Source of the DNA: a virus
Taxonomy: Duplodnaviria > Heunggongvirae > Uroviricota > Caudoviricetes
Length of the DNA stretch: 12,828 bases
Strand: one strand, 5' to 3'
IMG/VR virus record: IMGVR_UViG_2623620502_000003
Location: 1 to 12,828 of that record
The position numbers and the translations under genes were made by a program. The notes under the pieces are model-generated. The model saw only the letters and a list, made by a program, of their open reading frames with translations, had not been told where the DNA came from and did not search any database. Below are positions 1 through 12,828 of this stretch, one piece after another; within the stretch, counting starts at the first letter, position 1; each line of letters starts with the position of its first letter.

Positions 1-1035
<1,035 letters not shown>

Positions 1036-1052
1036 ATTTTATAACCCAGAAC

Positions 1053-1080
1053 GGGCGTCAGAAATGACGCCTTTTTTATT
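1053..1080 (+). terminator. Rho-independent terminator after J
   Basis: Stem GGCGTCA (1054-1060), loop GAAA, stem TGACGCC (1065-1071), then TTTTTTATT. Confidence 0.7.
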
Positions 1081-1101
1081 GCAGAAAAGCGAGAGGTAAT
1101 T

Positions 1102-1701
1102 ATGCGTAAACTTTATGCCGCCATTTTGTCCGCAGCCATTTGTCTGGCCGTATCCGGTGCACCTGCATGGGCGTCTGAACATCAGTCCACGCTGAGCGCG
1201 GGGTATCTTCATGCCCGGACGAACGTTCCCGGCAGTGATGATCTGAACGGGATTAACGTGAAATACCGTTATGAGTTTACGGACACACTGGGGATGGTGA
1301 CGTCGTTCAGCTATGCAGGAGACAAGAATCGCCAGATTACCCGTTACAGCGATACCCGCTGGCATGAAGATTCCGTTCGTAACCGCTGGTTCAGCGTAAT
1401 GGCGGGGCCGTCTGTGCGCGTGAATGAATGGTTCAGCGCGTATGCGATGGCGGGTGTGGCTTACAGCCGTGTGTCGACTTTCTCCGGGGATTATCTCCGC
1501 GTAACTGACAACAAGGGGAAAAAGCACGATGTGCTGACCGGAAGTGATGACGGTCGCCACAGCAACACGTCTCTGGCGTGGGGAGCTGGCGTGCAGTTTA
1601 ACCCGACCGAATCCGTGGCCATTGATGTCGCTTATGAAGGCTCCGGCAGTGGTGACTGGCGCACTGACGGGTTCATCGTGGGTGTTGGTTATAAATTCTG
1701 A
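1102..1701 (+). CDS. lom: Outer-membrane protein Lom (Ail/Lom family beta-barrel)
   Basis: 199-aa ORF with a GAGAGG Shine-Dalgarno 6 nt upstream of the ATG. It has a signal peptide ([24 protein letters not shown]) and ends in the aromatic motif GVGYKF typical of outer-membrane barrels. It is near-identical to lambda Lom as I recall it and sits between J and stf. Confidence 0.9.
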
Positions 1702-1727
1702 TTAGCCAGGTAACACAGTGTTATGAC

Positions 1728-1755
1728 AGCCCGCCGATTCAGGCGGGCTTTTTTG
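1728..1755 (+). terminator. Rho-independent terminator after lom
   Basis: Stem AGCCCGCC (1728-1735), loop GATTCA, stem GGCGGGCT, then TTTTTTG. Confidence 0.75.
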
Positions 1756-1765
1756 TGGGGTGAAT

Positions 1766-4700
1766 ATGGCAGTAAAAATTTCAGGTGTACTGAAAGACGG
1801 CACAGGAAAACCGGTACAGAACTGCACAATCCAGCTGAAAGCAAAACGTAACAGCACCACGGTGGTGGTGAACACGCTGGCCTCAGAAAATCCGGATGAA
1901 GCCGGGCGTTACAGCATGGACGTTGAGTACGGTCAGTACAGCGTTATTCTGTTGGTGGAAGGATTCCCGCCGTCACATGCCGGGACCATCACAGTGTATG
2001 AAGATTCCCGACCCGGTACGCTGAATGATTTTCTCGGTGCCATGACGGAGGATGATGCCCGTCCGGAGGCACTGCGCCGTTTTGAGCTGATGGTGGAAGA
2101 GGTGGCGCGTAACGCGTCCGTGGTGGCACAGAACACGGCAGCCGCGAAGAAGTCAGCCAGTGATGCCAGCACATCAGCCCGTGAGGCGGCAACCCATGCG
2201 ACTGATGCTGCAGGCTCAGCACGCGCAGCCAGCACGTCAGCCGGACAGGCCGCGTCGTCGGCTCAGTCAGCGACTTCCAGCGCAGGAACGGCATCAACAA
2301 AGGCCACTGAAGCATCAAAAAGTGCTGCCGCTGCAGAGTCCTCAAAAAGCGCGGCAGCTACCAGTGCCAGTGCCGCGAAAACGTCAGAAACGAATGCTGC
2401 AGCGTCACAACAATCAGCAGCCACTTCTGCATCCACCGCGACTACGAAAGCGTCAGAAGCTGCCACCTCAGCCCGGGATGCGGCGGCTTCAAAAGAGGCG
2501 GCAAAATCATCAGAAACGAACGCATCCTCCAGCGCCAGTAATGCCGCTTCCTCGGCAACGGCGGCAGGAAATTCCGCGAAGGCGGCAAAGACGTCTGAGA
2601 CAAACGCTAAGTCCTCTGAAACGGCAGCAGCACAGAGTGCCTCCGCAGCAGCAGGCTCAAAAACAGCGGCTGCGTCGTCTGCCAGTGCCGCGTCAACAAG
2701 TGCCGGGCAGGCCTCAGCCAGTGCTAGCGCCGCCGGAAAATCGGCAGAAAGCGCCGCATCGTCCGCTTCAACAGCCACAACGAAGGCTGGCGAAGCCGCT
2801 GTACAGGCCAGTGCAGCAGCGAGGTCTGCTTCCGCAGCGAAGACATCCGAGACGAACGCGAAAGCGTCGGAGACCAGCGCAGAATCCTCAAAAACGGCTG
2901 CCGCATCGTCCGCCAGTTCGGCGGCGTCATCGGCATCATCGGCGTCTGCTTCAAAAGATGAGGCGACCAGACAAGCGTCCGCAGCGAAGGGCAGCGCCAC
3001 GACAGCATCCACGAAGGCGACAGAGGCAGCTGGCAGTGCGACGGCGGCAGCACAGAGCAAAAGTACGGCGGAATCTGCAGCAACGCGCGCTGAGACAGCG
3101 GCAAAACGGGCAGAGGATATTGCATCCGCCGTGGCGCTTGAGGATGCGAGCACGACGAAAAAGGGGATAGTACAGCTCAGCAGTGCGACCAACAGCACTT
3201 CCGAGTCACTGGCGGCAACGCCAAAAGCCGTTAAGGCCGCGTATGACCTGGCTAACGGGAAATACACCGCACAGGATGCAACGACAGCACAGAAAGGGAT
3301 AATCCAGCTAAGCAGCGCGACCAACAGCACGTCTGAAACGCTGGCGGCAACGCCAAAGGCAGTAAAAGCAGCCAATGACAATGCTGAGAAACGTCTGCAG
3401 AAAGATCAGAACGGTGCGGATATCCCTGGCAAAGACACCTTTACGAAAAATATTGGTGCCTGCCGTGCCTTCGGTGGGTCAGTAAGCACAACAACAGGAA
3501 ACTGGACGACTGCACAGTTTATCGAGTGGCTGGATTCTCAGGGAGCATTTAACCATCCATACTGGATGTGCAAGGGTTCCTGGTCTTATGGCAATAATAA
3601 AATCATTACTGATACTGGCTGCGGTAATATTCATCTCGCCGGAGCTGTCATTGAAGTAATGGGGATAAAGTCAGCGATGACGATCCGCATTACCACACCG
3701 ACCACCTCCACTGGTGGTGGAACAACTAACGCCCAGTTTACCTATATTAATCACGGAACAGATTATTCACCTGGCTGGCGAAGGGACTATAACTCCAGAA
3801 ATAAGCCAACGGCATCAGAGATCGGGGCGTTACCGTCAGGTGGAACAGCAGTATCATCAGTTAATCTGTCTTCAAAAGGTCGGGTAACCGCGCTGACAGA
3901 CAATACGCAGGGGGCAACAGGTCTTGAGTTATACGAGGTGTATAACAACGGATATCCAACAGCGTATGGAAATATCATTCACCTGAAAGGGATGACAGCC
4001 GTTGGCGAAGGTGAGTTACTCATCGGCTGGAGTGGTACAAGCGGTGCTCATGCTCCGGCATTTATTCGTTCACGACGGGATACGACCGACGCAAACTGGT
4101 CGCCGTGGGCGCAGCTTTACACCTCGGCTCATCCTCCTGCAGAGTTTTATCCAGTCGGTGCACCAATCCCGTGGCCATCAGATACCGTTCCGTCTGGTTA
4201 TGCCCTGATGCAGGGGCAGACTTTTGACAAATCTGCTTACCCGAAACTTGCAGCTGCTTATCCGTCAGGCGTGATCCCTGATATGCGTGGCTGGATGATT
4301 AAGGGCAAGCCCGCCAGTGGTCGTGCCGTATTGTCTCAGGAACAGGACGGCATTAAATCGCACACCCACAGCGCCAGCGCATCCAGTACGGATTTGGGGA
4401 CGAAAACCACATCGTCGTTTGATTACGGCACTAAATCCACGAATAACACCGGGGCGCATACCCATAGTGTTAGCGGTACGGCTGCTTCAGCCGGTGCACA
4501 TACCCATTCGATGACATTTGTTTCAGGTGGTTCCAGTGGTGCTCCGGGAAGTGGATCACCTGATTATTCTAAATACAGTGTTAACACTTCTTCTGCAGGC
4601 GCTCATACGCACTCTGTATCGGGTACTGCTGCAAGCGCAGGTGCACACGCACATACTGTCGGTATTGGTGCTCATACGCACTCGGTTGCGATTGGCTCAC

Positions 4701-4789
4701 ATGGACACACCATCACCGTTAACGCTGCTGGTAACGCGGAAAACACCGTCAAAAACATTGCATTTAACTATATTGTGAGGCTTGCATAA
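1766..4789 (+). CDS. stf: Side tail fibre protein Stf (long, intact form)
   Basis: The N-terminus [37 protein letters not shown] matches lambda Stf as I recall it. The ATG at 1766 is preferred over the in-frame GTG at 1760 used by the ORF track. It contains a long Ala/Ser-rich region, a duplicated GI(V/I)[11 protein letters not shown](S/T)[11 protein letters not shown] motif and C-terminal G-A-H-T/A-H-S repeats, and is followed by tfa with a TAATG overlap. Confidence 0.85.
2140..3120 (+). repeat. Low-complexity Ala/Ser/Thr-rich coding repeats inside stf
   Basis: The translation is dominated by short units such as [14 protein letters not shown] and TSAGQASA. The GC-rich repetitive DNA also produces long spurious ORFs in other frames and on the opposite strand. 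Confidence 0.8.
3166..3375 (+). repeat. Tandem duplication of a ~25-aa fibre motif inside stf
   Basis: Two copies, [28 protein letters not shown] and [28 protein letters not shown], about 130 nt apart; the nucleotide sequences are diverged but clearly related. Confidence 0.75.
4355..4735 (+). repeat. His-containing G-A-H-T-H-S repeats in the Stf C-terminal tip domain
   Basis: At least seven HxH units in the translation (SHTHS, GAHTHS several times, GAHAHT, GSHGHT). Comparable His repeats occur in lambda Stf and T4 distal fibre tips, where they are thought to bind metal. Confidence 0.75.
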
Positions 4790-5373
4790 TGGCATTCAGA
4801 ATGAGTGAACAAGCACGGACCATAAAAATTTATAATCTGCTGGCCGGAACTAATGAATTTATTGGTGAAGGTGACGCATATATTCCGCCTCATACAGGTC
4901 TGCCAGCAAACAGTACCGATATTGCACCGCCAGATATTCCAGCAGGCTTCGTGGCTGTTTTCAACAGTGATGAGGCATCGTGGCATCTTGTTGAAGACCA
5001 TCGGGGTAAAACAGTTTATGACGTGGCATCAGGGGACGCGTTATTTATTTCTGAACTCGGCTCATTACCGGAAAATGTTACCTGGTTATCCCCGGAAGGG
5101 GAGTTTCAGAAGTGGAACGGCACAGCCTGGGTGAAGGATACGGAAGCAGAAAAACTGTTCCGGATCCGGGAGGCGGAAGAAACAAAAAACAGCCTGATGC
5201 AGGTAGCCAGTGAGCATATAGCGCCACTTCAGGATGCTGCAGATCTGGAAATTGCAACGGAGGAAGAAACCTCGTTGCTGGAAGCCTGGAAGAAGTATCG
5301 GGTGTTGCTGAACCGTGTTGATACATCAACTGCACCTGATATTGAGTGGCCAGAAGAACCAGACACCGTGTAA
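4789..5373 (+). CDS. tfa: Tail fibre assembly protein Tfa
   Basis: 194 aa beginning MAFRMSEQ...[34 protein letters not shown], matching lambda Tfa as I recall it. Its ATG overlaps the stf stop (TAATG), consistent with translational coupling. Confidence 0.85.
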
Positions 5374-5375
5374 GC

Positions 5376-5423
5376 AAAAAAGAAAAACCGCAGACACGAC
5401 GTATGCATGACGTGCTGCGGTTT
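5376..5423. terminator. Bidirectional hairpin terminator between tfa and the GIY-YIG gene
   Basis: An A-run (5376-5387) precedes stem CCGCAG (5388-5393), an imperfectly self-complementary interior, stem CTGCGG (5415-5420) and TTT. Read on the minus strand the hairpin is followed by a long U-tract, so it should terminate the minus-strand gene strongly and tfa more weakly. Confidence 0.65.
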
Positions 5424-5442
5424 ATGCTTATCACTTAAAGAC

Positions 5443-6619
<1,177 letters not shown>

Positions 6620-8053
6620 ATGTCTGAATTTGAAGTGTTGGCACAGCATCTGCTGAAGGAAGCCGAGGCGGAAGAAAAGCTGCGACAGGAAAATGATAAA
6701 AAGCTTATCGAGAAAGTGCTGGAAATCTATGATCAGAAGTATGTAGCTGAATTACTGAGAAAAGTCGGAAAAAATGAGTGGAGCCGTGAAACCATTAACC
6801 GCTGGATTAATGGCAAGTGTTTACCAAAATCGTTGACTTCAGTAGAAGAGTCTCTTCTGCGTAAGATGCTACCAGAACCACCTGCAAACCATCCGGAATA
6901 TGCTTTCCGCTTCATTGACTTATTTGCTGGAATTGGAGGGATACGGAAAGGTTTTGAGGCCATTGGAGGCCAGTGTGTTTTTACCAGTGAATGGAATAAA
7001 GATGCTGTGCGTACATACAAGGCCAACTGGTTTAACGATGAACAGGTGCATAAATTCAATCTCGATATTCGGGAAGTCACGCTGAGTGATAAAACCGATG
7101 TATTGGAAACGGATGCTTATGCATATATTGATGAGCATGTGCCGGATCATGATGTGCTTCTTGCGGGGTTCCCGTGCCAGCCATTTAGCCTTGCTGGTGT
7201 TAGTAAGAAAAACTCACTTGGTCGTGCGCATGGTTTTGAATGTGAAGCACAAGGAACACTTTTTTTTGACGTGGCACGTATTATACGAGCAAAAAAACCG
7301 GCAATTTTTGTGCTGGAAAATGTCAAAAATCTGAAGAGCCATGATAAGGGTAAAACTTTCAAAGTCATTATGGAGACCCTTGACGAGCTGGGCTACGAAG
7401 TTGCCGATGCTGCAGAAATGGGAAAAAACGATCCAAAGATTATCGATGGGAAGCATTTTTTGCCTCAGCATCGTGAACGCATTGTTCTGGTCGGATTTAG
7501 ACGAGATCTGAATATTCACAAGGGGTTTACCTTGCGTGATATCAGTCGTTTTTATCCGGAACACCGCCCATCATTTGGTGAATTGCTGGAGCCTGTAGTC
7601 GACAGTAAATATATACTTACGCCAAAACTATGGGAGTACCTTTATAACTACGCCAAAAAGCATGCAGCCAAGGGGAATGGTTTTGGCTTTGGGTTGGTCA
7701 ATCCTGAGAATAAGGAAAGCATTGCACGCACACTTTCTGCCAGATATCACAAAGACGGATCAGAAATTCTTATTGATCGTGGTTGGGATATGGCAACGGG
7801 AGAGGCTGACTTTATGAATGAGAGTAACCAGGCTCGTCGACCACGCAGGCTGACTCCCCGAGAGTGCGCACGCCTTATGGGGTTTGAAAAACCTGGAGGG
7901 AAACCATTCCGTATTCCGGTTTCAGATACTCAGTCATATCGGCAGTTCGGTAACTCCGTTGTGGTGCCAGTATTTGAAGCCGTTGCCAGACTTCTGGAAC
8001 CCTATATCCTCAAAGCTGTTTCTGCTGATGCTGGTAAGACTGGGCAGCCTTGA
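6620..8053 (+). CDS. ecoRIIM: DNA cytosine-5 methyltransferase, Dcm/M.EcoRII family (expected CCWGG specificity)
   Basis: C5-methyltransferase motifs are present: [15 protein letters not shown] (AdoMet binding), [11 protein letters not shown] (catalytic Cys), ENVKNL and [10 protein letters not shown]. The GGAGG-preceded ATG at 6620 gives 477 aa, the length I recall for M.EcoRII; the ORF track's start at 6578 adds 14 aa with no good Shine-Dalgarno. Confidence 0.9.
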
Positions 8054-8059
8054 GAACAC

Positions 8060-8082
8060 CTCCCGGCCTTTTAAGCCGGGAG
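8060..8082. terminator. Hairpin in the convergent gap shared by the methyltransferase and endonuclease genes
   Basis: Perfect 8-bp stem CTCCCGGC (8060-8067) / GCCGGGAG (8075-8082) with loop CTTTTAA, lying between the methyltransferase stop (8053) and the endonuclease stop (8088). Confidence 0.6.
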
Positions 8083-8087
8083 TCAGC

Positions 8088-9302
8088 CTATGATAGTTCA
8101 GCGTAAAGTTCTATCAGCTCAGTAATGAATGCTCCGAGCGTTATTAATTCTTCTCTAACTGCTTCTGGGTATTTTTTATGTAAAGTTGATGGTACAACGA
8201 GTCTGACACCCGCATCTTTCATTTCTCGGTATTGTGCTGAAGAAACACCTTCTTGCAGCGTAAATAAATGTACCTGATGGATTTTATCTGCTTCATTCAG
8301 TATCTGACGCCAGCGATCTTTGCAGGTGGTCTTTACTGCCAGCATACGTAAGTTTTCTACAGGAAATTCAACGTCATGATATGCCTCTGCTGAAGGAAAC
8401 AGGAAATCTGGTTTTTTATTACCTTCAGTAACTGCCTGAGTGGAGAAATGTCGTAGTCCGTGCTCGATAAAAAGCTTCTCTAGGTGAAGTTCAAGTGATT
8501 TACCTGCCCTTGATTTACGTCGATTACTGACAGAGTTGGCTAATGCAATAAACTCATCTACAGAATTGAATCCTTTCTTAATAATATCAAGAACATGTAA
8601 TTCCTCGACGAGTAGAAAAATATCATACTCGACACGCCGACGGTCAATCAGTTGCTCATCTGGATCCTTGGAGTTTTTAGCATAATGGCCAGCAGCATAT
8701 TGAATAATTTCGTTTCCAGAAGGAAAACGCTTCTTCCAGTCTTCAGGAATAACATATTTATGATTTACTGGAGTTTGCTGAAGAGACAATCCGCCCAAAA
8801 TTTGTCCGGCAGGGCCGGAAATTAGGGTTCCAGGTATGATTTCGCCAATAGCAGACTCGATGATATCCTCTTCATCGGGATTGACGCAGACCCATATATC
8901 TACCTCGGAACAGTCAGTGTTCTGTTCGTTTAACCTGAAAGCAAGAATTGTGAGGGCTCCTGTATTTTCAGAGTTCTGTAATGGACTTCCTCTCCCCCAG
9001 CGCGTAATTCTTTTTTCGTTTCGGGTCTTACCAAAATAACGGTTGTTGTAATAAATTGCGCGTGCTTGGGTATCAGGGCAATCATGGGATGATACATGCG
9101 CAGTAAGGAAGACTGAAGGGTTCAGTTCGCGAGTATGATTGATAGAAGGAAAAAGCTTTTCAACGATATTTGAGGGGATATAAAGTCCGACCTGATGGCC
9201 ACCTGTTGCGCCTGTGTCGTTTGCAGAAAGGCGTTTGATGTAGATAAAGTAATTCCCGCTTGCGATATCAAGCAGCCAGTTATGAAAAACCGACATATAC
9301 AT
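8088..9302 (-). CDS. ecoRIIR: Type IIE restriction endonuclease, EcoRII-like
   Basis: 404 aa, the length I recall for R.EcoRII, convergent with a Dcm-family methyltransferase as in the EcoRII system. The N-terminus (MSVFHNWLL...YIKRLSANDTGATGGHQVGLYIPS) matches my recollection of the EcoRII effector-binding domain. The second ATG at 9296 has better Shine-Dalgarno spacing (AAGGG) and may be the true start. Confidence 0.8.
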   Translation of the reverse strand: MYMSVFHNWLLDIASGNYFIYIKRLSANDTGATGGHQVGLYIPSNIVEKLFPSINHTRELNPSVFLTAHVSSHDCPDTQARAIYYNNRYFGKTRNEKRITRWGRGSPLQNSENTGALTILAFRLNEQNTDCSEVDIWVCVNPDEEDIIESAIGEIIPGTLISGPAGQILGGLSLQQTPVNHKYVIPEDWKKRFPSGNEIIQYAAGHYAKNSKDPDEQLIDRRRVEYDIFLLVEELHVLDIIKKGFNSVDEFIALANSVSNRRKSRAGKSLELHLEKLFIEHGLRHFSTQAVTEGNKKPDFLFPSAEAYHDVEFPVENLRMLAVKTTCKDRWRQILNEADKIHQVHLFTLQEGVSSAQYREMKDAGVRLVVPSTLHKKYPEAVREELITLGAFITELIELYAELS

Positions 9303-9382
9303 CCCTTTGTTAACATACAGTCAGGGTTAACATTTTTCCATAGTTATAGATAAGCGGCTAGGAACTTAAGGGAAAAACAAAA

Positions 9383-9404
9383 AGCCCGCATAAGCGGGCT
9401 TTTG
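9383..9404. terminator. Hairpin terminator upstream of the endonuclease gene
   Basis: Stem AGCCCGC (9383-9389), loop ATAA, stem GCGGGCT (9394-9400), then TTTTG; on the minus strand it is followed by TTTTTGTTTTT. It would block read-through from the IS5 side into the endonuclease gene. Confidence 0.55.
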
Positions 9405-9512
9405 TGTCACTCGAGAGCCGCGGCTCCTTTGCGTATCTTTTTTGTCTCCTCACCGTCTGGTCGGTGTCCTGCTGAGACTGCTAATTTCCTGTTTTTGTTA
9501 GTACTGTCCTAG

Positions 9513-9528
9513 GGAAGGTGCGAATAAG
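9513..9528. repeat. IS5 terminal inverted repeat (IRR end)
   Basis: GGAAGGTGCGAATAAG, the inverted counterpart of 10693-10708. Confidence 0.9.
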
Positions 9529-9659
9529 CAGGTCATTTCTTCCCAAGCTGACTCGCTGATTAAAATTTCGCGGTTCTGGGCCGATTTTTTTCCCGCAAAC
9601 ACATCGAATCAGCCTATTTAGGCTATTTTTTCCACCATTTCTGGCGTTATTTCCGGTTT

Positions 9660-10685
<1,026 letters not shown>

Positions 10686-10692
10686 TCAGGAA

Positions 10693-10708
10693 CTTGTTCG
10701 CACCTTCC
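10693..10708. repeat. IS5 terminal inverted repeat (IRL end)
   Basis: CTTGTTCGCACCTTCC, the reverse complement of GGAAGGTGCGAACAAG. Confidence 0.9.
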
Positions 10709-10970
10709 CTAACTAGTTCTTTAATCCAATAGCCTAAGCTCATCATGCAGTTGGATCATAAGACAACGCCCTATAGTGCTCGTGATACTATAGGGCATCT
10801 GACCACACTGTTAACTGGAGTAACGACTATGGCAGGAATACAGCATAACTAAACTCACCCCAAACTTACATAGCGCTTTCTGGCCGTGAGCATAACAAGG
10901 TCCGCTCCTCGCTCATAACAGACATTCACTACAGTTATGGTAGAAGGTATGCATGCTGGGTGGGGAAAGT

Positions 10971-11081
10971 ATGAAGGAAAAGAAGACTGCTGCGCCGTTT
11001 GTCGTCACATTTATCTTCATTGGCTATGCAAGTCGTAATACAAGGTGGGACAAAACTGAGACACATAAGGCCTCGCAATGA
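10971..11081 (+). CDS. Candidate small ORF (36 aa) with a hydrophobic core; hypothetical
   Basis: ATG at 10971 preceded by GGGGAAAG 3 nt upstream; translation MKEKKTAAPFVVTFIFIGYASRNTRWDKTETHKASQ, stop TGA at 11079-11081. Below the ORF-track length cutoff; no homology assessed. Confidence 0.2.
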   Translation: MKEKKTAAPFVVTFIFIGYASRNTRWDKTETHKASQ

Positions 11082-11170
11082 CTTGCAAGGCTTTACATGT
11101 TTTGATGTGGTGGGACGTGTGAGCGCAGTGTTGATGGGGTAATGCTTTGAATTAGAAGCGGATTCTTATA

Positions 11171-11216
11171 ATTCGTAATGCGAAGGTCGTAGGTTCGACT
11201 CCTATTATCGGCACCA
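11171..11216 (+). other. Attachment-site core: 3'-terminal 46 nt of tRNA-Thr(CGU), a partial tRNA rather than a gene
   Basis: ATTCGTAATGCGAAGGTCGTAGGTTCGACTCCTATTATCGGCACCA matches the anticodon loop (anticodon CGT), T-arm (GGTTCGACTCC) and 3' acceptor strand with CCA of the E. coli thrW-type tRNA as I recall it. The upstream 30 nt do not encode a D-arm or 5' acceptor strand. A P4-type integrase gene starts ~165 bp downstream. Confidence 0.75.
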
Positions 11217-11380
11217 TCACCTAGTTTTCCCAAGTCAACCCACATCAACAAAATCATTTAAAAACATATATATTACGTTATTTTCATACGTTTGAGGTCA
11301 ACCCTTGTCTCTTGAAATCAACACGCGGTTGGGGGCACAATCAGGGGCATGTTCTGTTCGGTCTAGGAAATGTGCCCCCA

Positions 11381-12571
11381 ATGATGCTGAATGCCCGCAA
11401 GGTTGAAGCTGCGAAAGGAAAAGAGAAGAGCTACAAGCTGTTTGATGGAGGTGGCCTATACCTTCAGGTCGAACCTAATGGCTCGCGTTACTGGCGTATG
11501 AAATACCGTTTTGCTGGTAAAGAGAAACGATTGTCCTTTGGTGTTTATCCAACAGTCACACTTGCTGATGCCAGACAAAAACGAGAAGACGCGAAGAAAC
11601 TACTCGCAGCAGGTGAAGATCCCGGCGAAGTCAAAAAAGCCAAAAAGCAGGCTTTAAATGCAGCGATTGAGACACTTAACCCATTCAGAGAAGTGGCGTT
11701 AGAGTGGCACAAAATGAAATCACCCAAATGGTCTGAGGGCTATGCTTCCGACATCATTGAGGCATTCGAGAAAGACATTTTCCCGCATATTGGGCACAGA
11801 CCTATAGCTGATATTCAGCCCCTTGAACTGCTTGAAGTTCTGAGGTTGATAGAAGCTCGAGGCGCTATGGAGAAAGCGAAGAAAGTCCGTCAGCGATGCG
11901 GTGAAGTTTTTCGCTATGCCATCGTAACGGGTAGGGCAATCTACAATCCGGCACCGGATCTTGCCAGTGCGATGCAAGGACATGAAGCAGTCCACTATCC
12001 ATTCCTCAAAGCCAACGAACTACCGGAGTTCTTTAATGCCCTTAATTCTTATTCAGGAAGTCCAATTGTATTGTTGGGGGCGCATTTACTTATCCTGACA
12101 GGTCTACGAACTGGAGAACTACGAGCAGGTGAGTGGCGAGAGGTGGATTTTGATAATGCGGTGTGGGAGATCCCAAAAGAACGTATGAAAATGCGTAGGA
12201 GCCATATTGTCCCGTTGTCAAAACAAGCATTATCCCATCTCAAAAGTTTGAAAGAACTAACTGGGAACTACCCGCTGATGTTCCCTGGACGCAACGATCC
12301 TAGCAAATTTATGAGTGAAGCAAGCATTAATCAGGTGTTTAAACGTATTGGATATGCAGGGCGTGTTACGGGGCATGGTTTCAGGCATACGATGAGTACA
12401 ATCCTACATGAGAAAGGATTTAACAGCGCTTGGATTGAAACCCAGCTTGCTCATTCGGACAAAAACTCTATTCGTGGAATTTATAACCATGCCCAATATC
12501 TCGAAGGGAGAAGAGAAATGATGCAATGGTATGCTAATTATTTATCTGAGCTAATTGGTACTCATAAATGA
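11381..12571 (+). CDS. int: Site-specific tyrosine integrase, P4-type
   Basis: The N-terminus has the arm-binding-domain pattern (KLFDGGGLYLQVEPNGSRYWRMKYRFAGKEKRLSFGVYP); the C-terminus has catalytic Arg (LRTGELR), H-x-x-R (GHGFRHT) and Tyr (IRGIYNHAQY). The ATG at 11381 is preferred over the TTG at 11312. It is immediately downstream of a tRNA-derived att core. Confidence 0.9.
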   Translation: MMLNARKVEAAKGKEKSYKLFDGGGLYLQVEPNGSRYWRMKYRFAGKEKRLSFGVYPTVTLADARQKREDAKKLLAAGEDPGEVKKAKKQALNAAIETLNPFREVALEWHKMKSPKWSEGYASDIIEAFEKDIFPHIGHRPIADIQPLELLEVLRLIEARGAMEKAKKVRQRCGEVFRYAIVTGRAIYNPAPDLASAMQGHEAVHYPFLKANELPEFFNALNSYSGSPIVLLGAHLLILTGLRTGELRAGEWREVDFDNAVWEIPKERMKMRRSHIVPLSKQALSHLKSLKELTGNYPLMFPGRNDPSKFMSEASINQVFKRIGYAGRVTGHGFRHTMSTILHEKGFNSAWIETQLAHSDKNSIRGIYNHAQYLEGRREMMQWYANYLSELIGTHK

Positions 12572-12756
12572 ATATTTTAAAAATTAATAATACTGATTCT
12601 CTGCTCAGAGATTACTACCAGTTGGATGAAGCTTCAGAAAAAATTGGTTGTAGTGAAAAGGATATACTCTGGTTTGCCAGAGAACGAGATGTAGAGCTAT
12701 GCATGGAATTCCATGATGATGAGTATGATGTTTCATGTGGTTTGAAGATTGGGTGA
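12568..12756 (+). CDS. Small acidic hypothetical protein translationally coupled to int
   Basis: 62-aa ORF whose ATG overlaps the int stop (ATGA at 12568-12571). It is Asp/Glu-rich with no motif I recognise. Confidence 0.4.
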   Translation: MNILKINNTDSLLRDYYQLDEASEKIGCSEKDILWFARERDVELCMEFHDDEYDVSCGLKIG

Positions 12757-12828
12757 TGCTGCCAACTTACTGATTTAGTGTATGATGGTGTTTTTGAGGT
12801 GCTCCAGTGGCTTCTGTTTCTATCAGCA

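Follow-up and report, generated by a model that had tools for sequence, protein, structure and literature searches.

A stretch of 12,828 nt (hereafter the window) carries at positions 11171-11216 a 46-nt piece of a threonine tRNA gene, followed 165 nt downstream by the start of an integrase gene. The question raised by this locus is which mobile element left the tRNA piece there and which recombinase uses it. Genome matches place the window in the E. coli chromosome, at the thrW locus. Its source genome lies outside the genome collection used, in which the best whole-window match has 86% coverage and 94% identity. Related genomes place the intact thrW, the prophage integrase gene and the far end of the satellite of the source genome probably outside the window. 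With high confidence, the 46-mer can be considered a composite att junction in the E. coli chromosome, where two unrelated integrative elements, a lambdoid prophage and a P4-like satellite, are located in tandem at thrW.

The threonine tRNA fragment

Positions 11171-11216 (ATTCGTAATGCGAAGGTCGTAGGTTCGACTCCTATTATCGGCACCA, plus strand) are identical at 46 of 46 positions to nt 31-76 of the E. coli K-12 thrW gene, encoding tRNA-Thr(CGU) (L005 1372-1447). The fragment starts at A31, the final base of the 5' strand of the anticodon stem and one base ahead of the loop. It continues through the anticodon loop (nt 32-38, window 11172-11178), the variable loop, the T arm and the 3' strand of the acceptor stem, and ends at the CCA. 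Directly upstream, window position 11170 is an A versus a C at tRNA position 30, and over the full 76 nt of thrW only 54 positions are identical to the window; therefore, the 5' half of the gene is absent.

A tRNA search of the whole window with ARAGORN returned 0 genes, and an Rfam scan of the window at E<=1 gave no tRNA match. The segment is not a functional tRNA gene, as a complete cloverleaf comprises acceptor, D, anticodon and T arms and just nt 31-76 are there. Allowing up to 3 mismatches, one copy of the 46-mer is found in the window, compared to 0 in 200 shuffled controls. The earlier note, made from the sequence alone, had described an att segment consisting of the 3' 46 nt of tRNA-Thr(CGU) without the 5' half, and this description is confirmed by the alignment to the K-12 gene and by the empty tRNA search. 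The second copy it had called for, and also a third, are located outside the window and are seen in related complete genomes.

The prophage side

To the left of the fragment, positions 1-11045 (plus strand) form the right-hand part of a lambdoid prophage, to which annotated E. coli prophages match at 97-98% and in which the gene calls are backed by Pfam. The C-terminus of J (10-1035), lom (1102-1701), the side tail fibre gene stf (1760-4789) and tfa (4789-5373) are followed by an accessory region. This region contains a LEM-3-like GIY-YIG nuclease gene (5443-6267, minus strand), an EcoRII-type C5-methylase (6578-8053, plus strand) and an EcoRII-type endonuclease with EcoRII-N and EcoRII-C domains (8088-9302, minus strand). 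A complete copy of IS5 (9513-10708, terminal repeats GGAAGGTGCGAA; transposase at 9660-10640, minus strand) is inserted in it, and many related prophages match the window only as far as 9510. The DNA between IS5 and the att arm (10709-11045) is again phage accessory-region DNA, with matches to phage mEp460 (10709-10923) and phage phi458 (10890-11217).

Two side observations were made in this part of the window. Rfam family IS009 has a full-length match (224.8 bits, E=1e-55) at 5132-5330, wholly within tfa; what is listed as an 'sRNA' family thus appears to be the 3' portion of a coding sequence of prophages. A GC-rich hairpin between A/T runs is present at 9352-9429, in the interval from the endonuclease gene to IS5. 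Its matches to Rfam RNAs (Leu_leader, STnc350, RsmY) are weak and below the gathering scores, so that a meaningful Rfam RNA was rejected; the hairpin is most likely a bidirectional terminator.

Adjoining the fragment, positions 11046-11170 (plus strand) are the P arm of a P22/SfIV-type attP, i.e. the attR arm of the prophage, as identified by comparison with SfIV and P22. Window positions 11046-11217 share 97.7% identity with the SfIV attP, located in this Shigella phage between gtrA and int, and the 70 nt preceding the core contain a single difference from SfIV. Motifs of the arm type, TGGGAC, occur at 11046-11051 and 11111-11116, with TGGGAC at the homologous places in P22; they may be binding sites for Int. 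The 46-mer itself is 46/46 identical in SfIV, P22 and phi458, and in the P22 genome it is found at 21293-21338, adjoining int. According to the SfIV genome paper (PMC3851460), the attP of this phage is 46 bp, is the same in SfI and SfV, and flanks the prophage at thrW. Two marks of a P22/SfIV-type att site are thus present: a core identical to the phage-borne and published 46 bp, and a phage P arm adjoining its 5' side. A third mark, the cognate integrase gene beside an intact thrW at the other prophage end, is seen in the related genome NZ_CM136166.1. Based on this, 11171-11216 is annotated as the P22/SfIV-type common core, serving at once as attR core of the prophage and as the tRNA-derived part of the satellite attL.

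The satellite side

From position 11217 on, the window continues with the arm of a P4-like satellite and not with the native thrW flank (TTAAAATCAAA...). The satellite P' arm and int promoter region (11217-11380, plus strand) is colinear with P4 from the core to int. A promoter-like element on the plus strand, with -35 TTGAAA at 11312-11317 and -10 CACAAT at 11336-11341, coincides with the annotated int promoter of P4, and TTGAAATC is conserved at the annotated P4 -35. Two tandem 12-mers on the plus strand, TTGGGGGCACAA (11329-11340) and TCAGGGGCATGT (11341-11352), lie on the features annotated in P4 as 'attP arm sequence repeat', and at 11370-11381 the start codon of int is overlapped, as in P4, by a copy in inverted orientation. 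The inverted repeat is perfect over 11 nt. These repeats and the promoter may be involved in binding and regulation. On the other arm of the satellite, as seen in relatives, two tandem GGGGGCA repeats are located at a P4-like distance from the core. Arm repeats TTGGGGGCA flanking the core (the P-arm copies in relatives), together with an inverted copy at the start of int, are what characterizes a P4-type site, and all of these copies align with the repeats annotated in P4.

The integrase gene (11381-12571, plus strand) encodes a P4-type tyrosine integrase of 396 aa with the Pfam domains Arm-DNA-bind_3, Phage_int_M and Phage_integrase. Over its full length it shares 43% identity with P4 Int (E=3e-112), and the same start is annotated by RefSeq in relatives. 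An Arm-DNA-bind_3 N-terminal domain, a tyrosine-recombinase catalytic domain and homology to P4 Int place it among the P4-type integrases. The first satellite gene after int (12568-12828, plus strand) is 825 nt long in uninterrupted relatives; in the window it is reduced to an ORF at 12568-12756, being cut by an IS1 with its left end at 12752. The window ends 260 nt past int, and the P4 gene set is known from relatives carrying the same int. One of these relatives, strain PRO_A-1462-6M-A_ESBL, contains about 8 tandem 9-bp units (CCCATGCTT) at L004 ~41700-41775, roughly 100 nt left of the satellite P-arm repeats, and this array stands where P4 carries its crr replication repeats.

The short core of the satellite

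Nested in the 46-mer is a P4-type core, consisting of thrW nt 57-76 plus one T (11197-11217, plus strand). It is homologous to the annotated 20-bp attP core of P4, which comprises leuX nt 66-85, the corresponding stretch from the T loop to the CCA. Within it lies the block CTCCTATTATCGGCACCA(T) (11199-11217), of which related genomes carry a second copy at the opposite satellite end. The attR of the VG12A2 satellite (L009 29458-29475) has 18 exact nt (CTCCTATTATCGGCACCA), or 19 with the shared T after the CCA. The same block with a 1-nt deletion is present in PRO_A-1462 (L004 41879-41895), and in QDFD216 (L020 4408-4425) the identity runs from T54 (TTCGACTCC...) with the same 1-nt deletion. 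In all three genomes, the right-end repeat starts within the T loop, and the native downstream sequence of thrW comes after it. The direct repeat of the satellite thus measures 18-23 nt, from T loop to CCA, and lies within the 46-mer. A short, ~20-bp core at the tRNA 3' end, as expected for a P4-type element, is therefore found at both element ends, and 46 nt is not the length of the satellite repeat.

Given the short satellite repeats, the P4-colinear layout of the arm and the position of the 20-bp core in P4, the P4-type site is placed by sequence comparison in the ~20 nt at 11197-11217, while the P22/SfIV-type module accounts for the length of 46 nt and for the DNA adjoining it 5'. As a separate observation, two of the three right-end repeats read TATCG-CACCA in place of TATCGGCACCA. 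If the satellite attP has that 1-nt deletion, strand exchange would take place 3' of the deletion, in the last 6-7 nt around the CCA.

The junction in related genomes

The complete array can be read in strain PRO_A-1462-6M-A_ESBL (NZ_CM136166.1). From the left, proA is followed by an intact thrW, int, a lambdoid prophage and the P arm with the 46-mer. To the right of these are located the P4-like int and genes for an Icd-like protein, DUF5375, a TOPRIM/DUF927 primase, Psu, Delta and Drt3. The array closes with CTCCTATTATCG-CACCA, after which come the native flank TTAAAATCAAAGAG and paoD. The prophage int lies 14 bp past the CCA of thrW, and its product shares 99.7% identity with SfIV Int and 89.5% with P22 Int. 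Two elements in tandem at one tRNA gene are expected to leave three nested thrW-derived repeats, which is what is found in this strain, ARAGORN calling a tRNA at the first alone. The proposal of the earlier note that thrW is the integration target holds for the element of the P4-type integrase and also for the left-hand element.

Next to this complete array, the two halves of the junction also occur apart. When proA-thrW and window 11217-11816 were joined into a synthetic query, 50 of the 5426 E. coli genomes matched it end to end, with up to 100% identity. Therefore, the satellite is an independent element whose normal place is immediately next to an intact thrW. The composite junction of SfIV-type P arm, 46-mer and satellite arm is present in 17 E. 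coli genomes. Across genomes, four right flanks occur after P arm and 46-mer: the satellite of the window, a second satellite, a different island or native DNA of the thrW flank. Likewise, various left flanks precede the 46-mer with the satellite arm, either the intact 5' half of thrW, in the 50 genomes, or arms of other elements. As judged from these combinations, 11216/11217 behaves as a recombination boundary, a swap point. The comparisons show the junction to be, at the level of sequence, the attR of the prophage (P arm-core) and the attL of the satellite (core-P' arm-int) together.

In strain VG12A2, a satellite 99.94% identical to that of the window and with the same IS1 insertion (12752; L009 17867-18564) is located directly at an intact thrW without a prophage. 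The occurrence of the same satellite and IS1 in this state weakly suggests that the gain or loss of the prophage may postdate the arrival of the satellite. The IS1 insertion at 12752 might be used to mark the lineage.

An exact-pattern scan of IMG/VR for the excised satellite attP gave two contigs, both carrying the composite junction instead. A blastn search of phage records for the satellite attP retrieved P4 alone, with 68.6% identity in the arm repeats and at the int start.

Other integrases at thrW and alternative explanations

Several other integrases are associated with thrW fragments of comparable extent. CP4-6 of K-12 (L019 3207-3266) has a 49-nt thrW fragment plus 11 nt of flank, and its IntF carries an Arm-DNA-bind_3 domain, being only marginally similar to the satellite Int. 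A 49-nt thrW block is found with a phage Int in PEC1003 (L014 2498-2546), and a 46-nt block with a different arm in an island of strain Y5 (L015 4003-4048). In CUPF06, an integrase with DUF6538 is accompanied by a thrW fragment of 19+11 nt (L002 42371-42389). The rule that a block from the anticodon loop is of P22 type only was considered and found too strong, since CP4-6 IntF goes with 49+11 nt and the Y5 island with 46 nt and a different arm. The converse rule of the earlier note, that a match from the anticodon loop is a P4-type signature, fails as well, as such blocks accompany several integrase families at thrW. An identity block starting at the anticodon stem-loop thus identifies no single integrase family as far as these alignments go. 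Block length alone assigns no integrase either, given the 46-49-nt blocks with other Arm-DNA-bind_3 integrases at thrW. It is the flanking arms, along with the repeats bounding the elements, that assign the 46-mer to a P22/SfIV-type module.

In PEC1003, RefSeq annotates a 112-nt 'tRNA-Ser' (L014 2435-2546, NZ_CP160643.1) over the 49-nt 3' fragment of thrW, at another phage-satellite junction. This 'tRNA-Ser' appears to be spurious, as ARAGORN finds no tRNA there.

The integrase 165 nt downstream is of P4 type, and distant Arm-DNA-bind_3 integrases at thrW (CP4-6 IntF, Y5 island) go with blocks of 46-49 nt; both points are in line with the 46-mer being the crossover core of the P4-type integrase, recombining 46 nt from the anticodon loop, as the earlier note had proposed. 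This explanation is nevertheless very unlikely. The element with this integrase is bounded in three genomes by a repeat of just 18-23 nt of thrW, and P4's own core is 20 bp, starting from the T loop of leuX. The DNA left of the 46-mer, 97.7% identical together with it to the SfIV attP, is an SfIV/P22 arm and not satellite DNA. Moreover, 50 genomes have the same int and arm after a complete thrW.

Another explanation would be that the window is a free replicon (phage, satellite or plasmid) and the segment its attP, which was implicit in the earlier note. A partial tRNA beside an integrase, in a window without a tRNA gene, does resemble an attP. A free attP would have both arms from one element, but here the left arm is of SfIV/P22 type and the right arm of P4 type. 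The whole arrangement is present in E. coli chromosomes between proA-thrW and paoD, and both IMG/VR matches carry the composite junction rather than a satellite attP. A free replicon is therefore extremely improbable, and a chromosomal junction of two tandem integrated elements replaces the attP reading. The chance that a thrW duplicate was simply truncated into a decayed pseudogene by deletion or IS activity, without site-specific recombination, is negligible despite the IS5 and IS1 in the window. The fragment stops exactly at the SfIV/P22 core boundary on one side and exactly at the CCA end on the other, and its sequence recurs with 100% conservation in 17 or more genomes as well as in phage genomes. 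The IS elements, moreover, are at least 460 nt away.

A model for the composite junction

Tyrosine integrases act on arm sites and on a core with a short overlap region. In the preferred explanation, a tandem array of prophage and satellite at thrW, the P22/SfIV-type module would recombine the 46-bp core (thrW nt 31-76), leaving the P arm and the 46-mer at the right end of the prophage. The satellite Int would recombine a shorter core of ~18-23 nt, from the T loop to the CCA of the same tRNA. An intact thrW would then be located at the left end of the prophage, and a third, short thrW repeat would close the satellite. Since the satellite core is nested in the 46-mer, the 46-mer with the P' arm and int would also be the attL of the satellite. 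The strand-exchange positions of both integrases assumed here are predicted from the identity blocks.

Following the tyrosine-integrase scheme, each Int, with its own directionality factor, would act on its own pair of sub-sites alone. Being confined in this way, each element could probably still excise alone. Excision of the prophage would give thrW-satellite, with thrW joined directly to TCACCTAGTTTT, and this state exists in 50 genomes. Excision of the satellite would leave the P arm, the 46-mer and the native flank in the chromosome, and this state exists in the phi458 record. The excised satellite circle would read GGGGGCA repeats ... CTCCTATTATCGGCACCA TCACCTAG.

That the composite site functionally couples the two elements, by read-through or cross-talk of Int/Xis setting off satellite excision on prophage induction, or by co-excision as one unit, is highly improbable. 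If it were true, a lambdoid phage, rather than a P2-like phage, would be the partner of a P4-like satellite.

For annotation, which is where the main value of this analysis lies, the boundary between prophage and P4-like, defence-carrying satellite can be set exactly at 11216/11217. As a practical rule for delimiting islands and prophages, a tRNA fragment owes its length to the element lying 5' of it (whose attR it is) and not necessarily to the integrase gene just 3' of it. Nested sub-sites for several integrase lineages can be present in the 3' half of a single tRNA.

Comparison with known systems

A tandem prophage-satellite junction at thrW is already known biology, and all components match described systems. 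Tandem elements at, and occupancy of, tRNA hotspots were reported for P4-like satellites (PMC10121019, PMC8628076), and P4-like satellites with defence hotspots have been described as well (PMC8628076, PMC9122126).

The att site of Salmonella phage P22 and of the serotype-converting Shigella phages SfI, SfII, SfIV and SfV, located at thrW with a 46-bp core, is the closest system on the prophage side. The 46-mer is identical, and the P arm is 97.7% identical to that of SfIV and homologous to that of P22. Unlike in these phages, the module in the window is carried by a siphovirus backbone of lambda type (J, lom, stf, tfa), and an EcoRII-type restriction-modification system instead of gtr genes is present beside the P arm. 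After the CCA, moreover, the window has a satellite arm and not the native thrW flank.

On the satellite side, the attP-int region of P4 (arm repeats TTGGGGGCAYAW) has the same layout: a core, about 110 nt, two tandem 12-mers and, across the int ATG, a copy in inverted orientation. The -35/-10 promoter is in the same place, the core occupies homologous tRNA positions from T loop to CCA, and the Int proteins are 43% identical. The elements of relatives share with P4 the Icd-like, DUF5375, TOPRIM/DUF927 primase, Psu/Sid-like and Delta genes and a defence hotspot. However, the satellite of the window targets thrW whereas P4 targets leuX, and its attL makes use of 46 nt of tRNA sequence that a different element left behind, in place of a complete tRNA gene.

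Arrays of islands and prophages at one tRNA gene, such as CP4-6 at thrW in K-12, resemble the window in that several integrase lineages are found there, each with a characteristic length of the 3' fragment. Nothing essential distinguishes the window from such tandem arrays, and it can be considered one instance of this known pattern.
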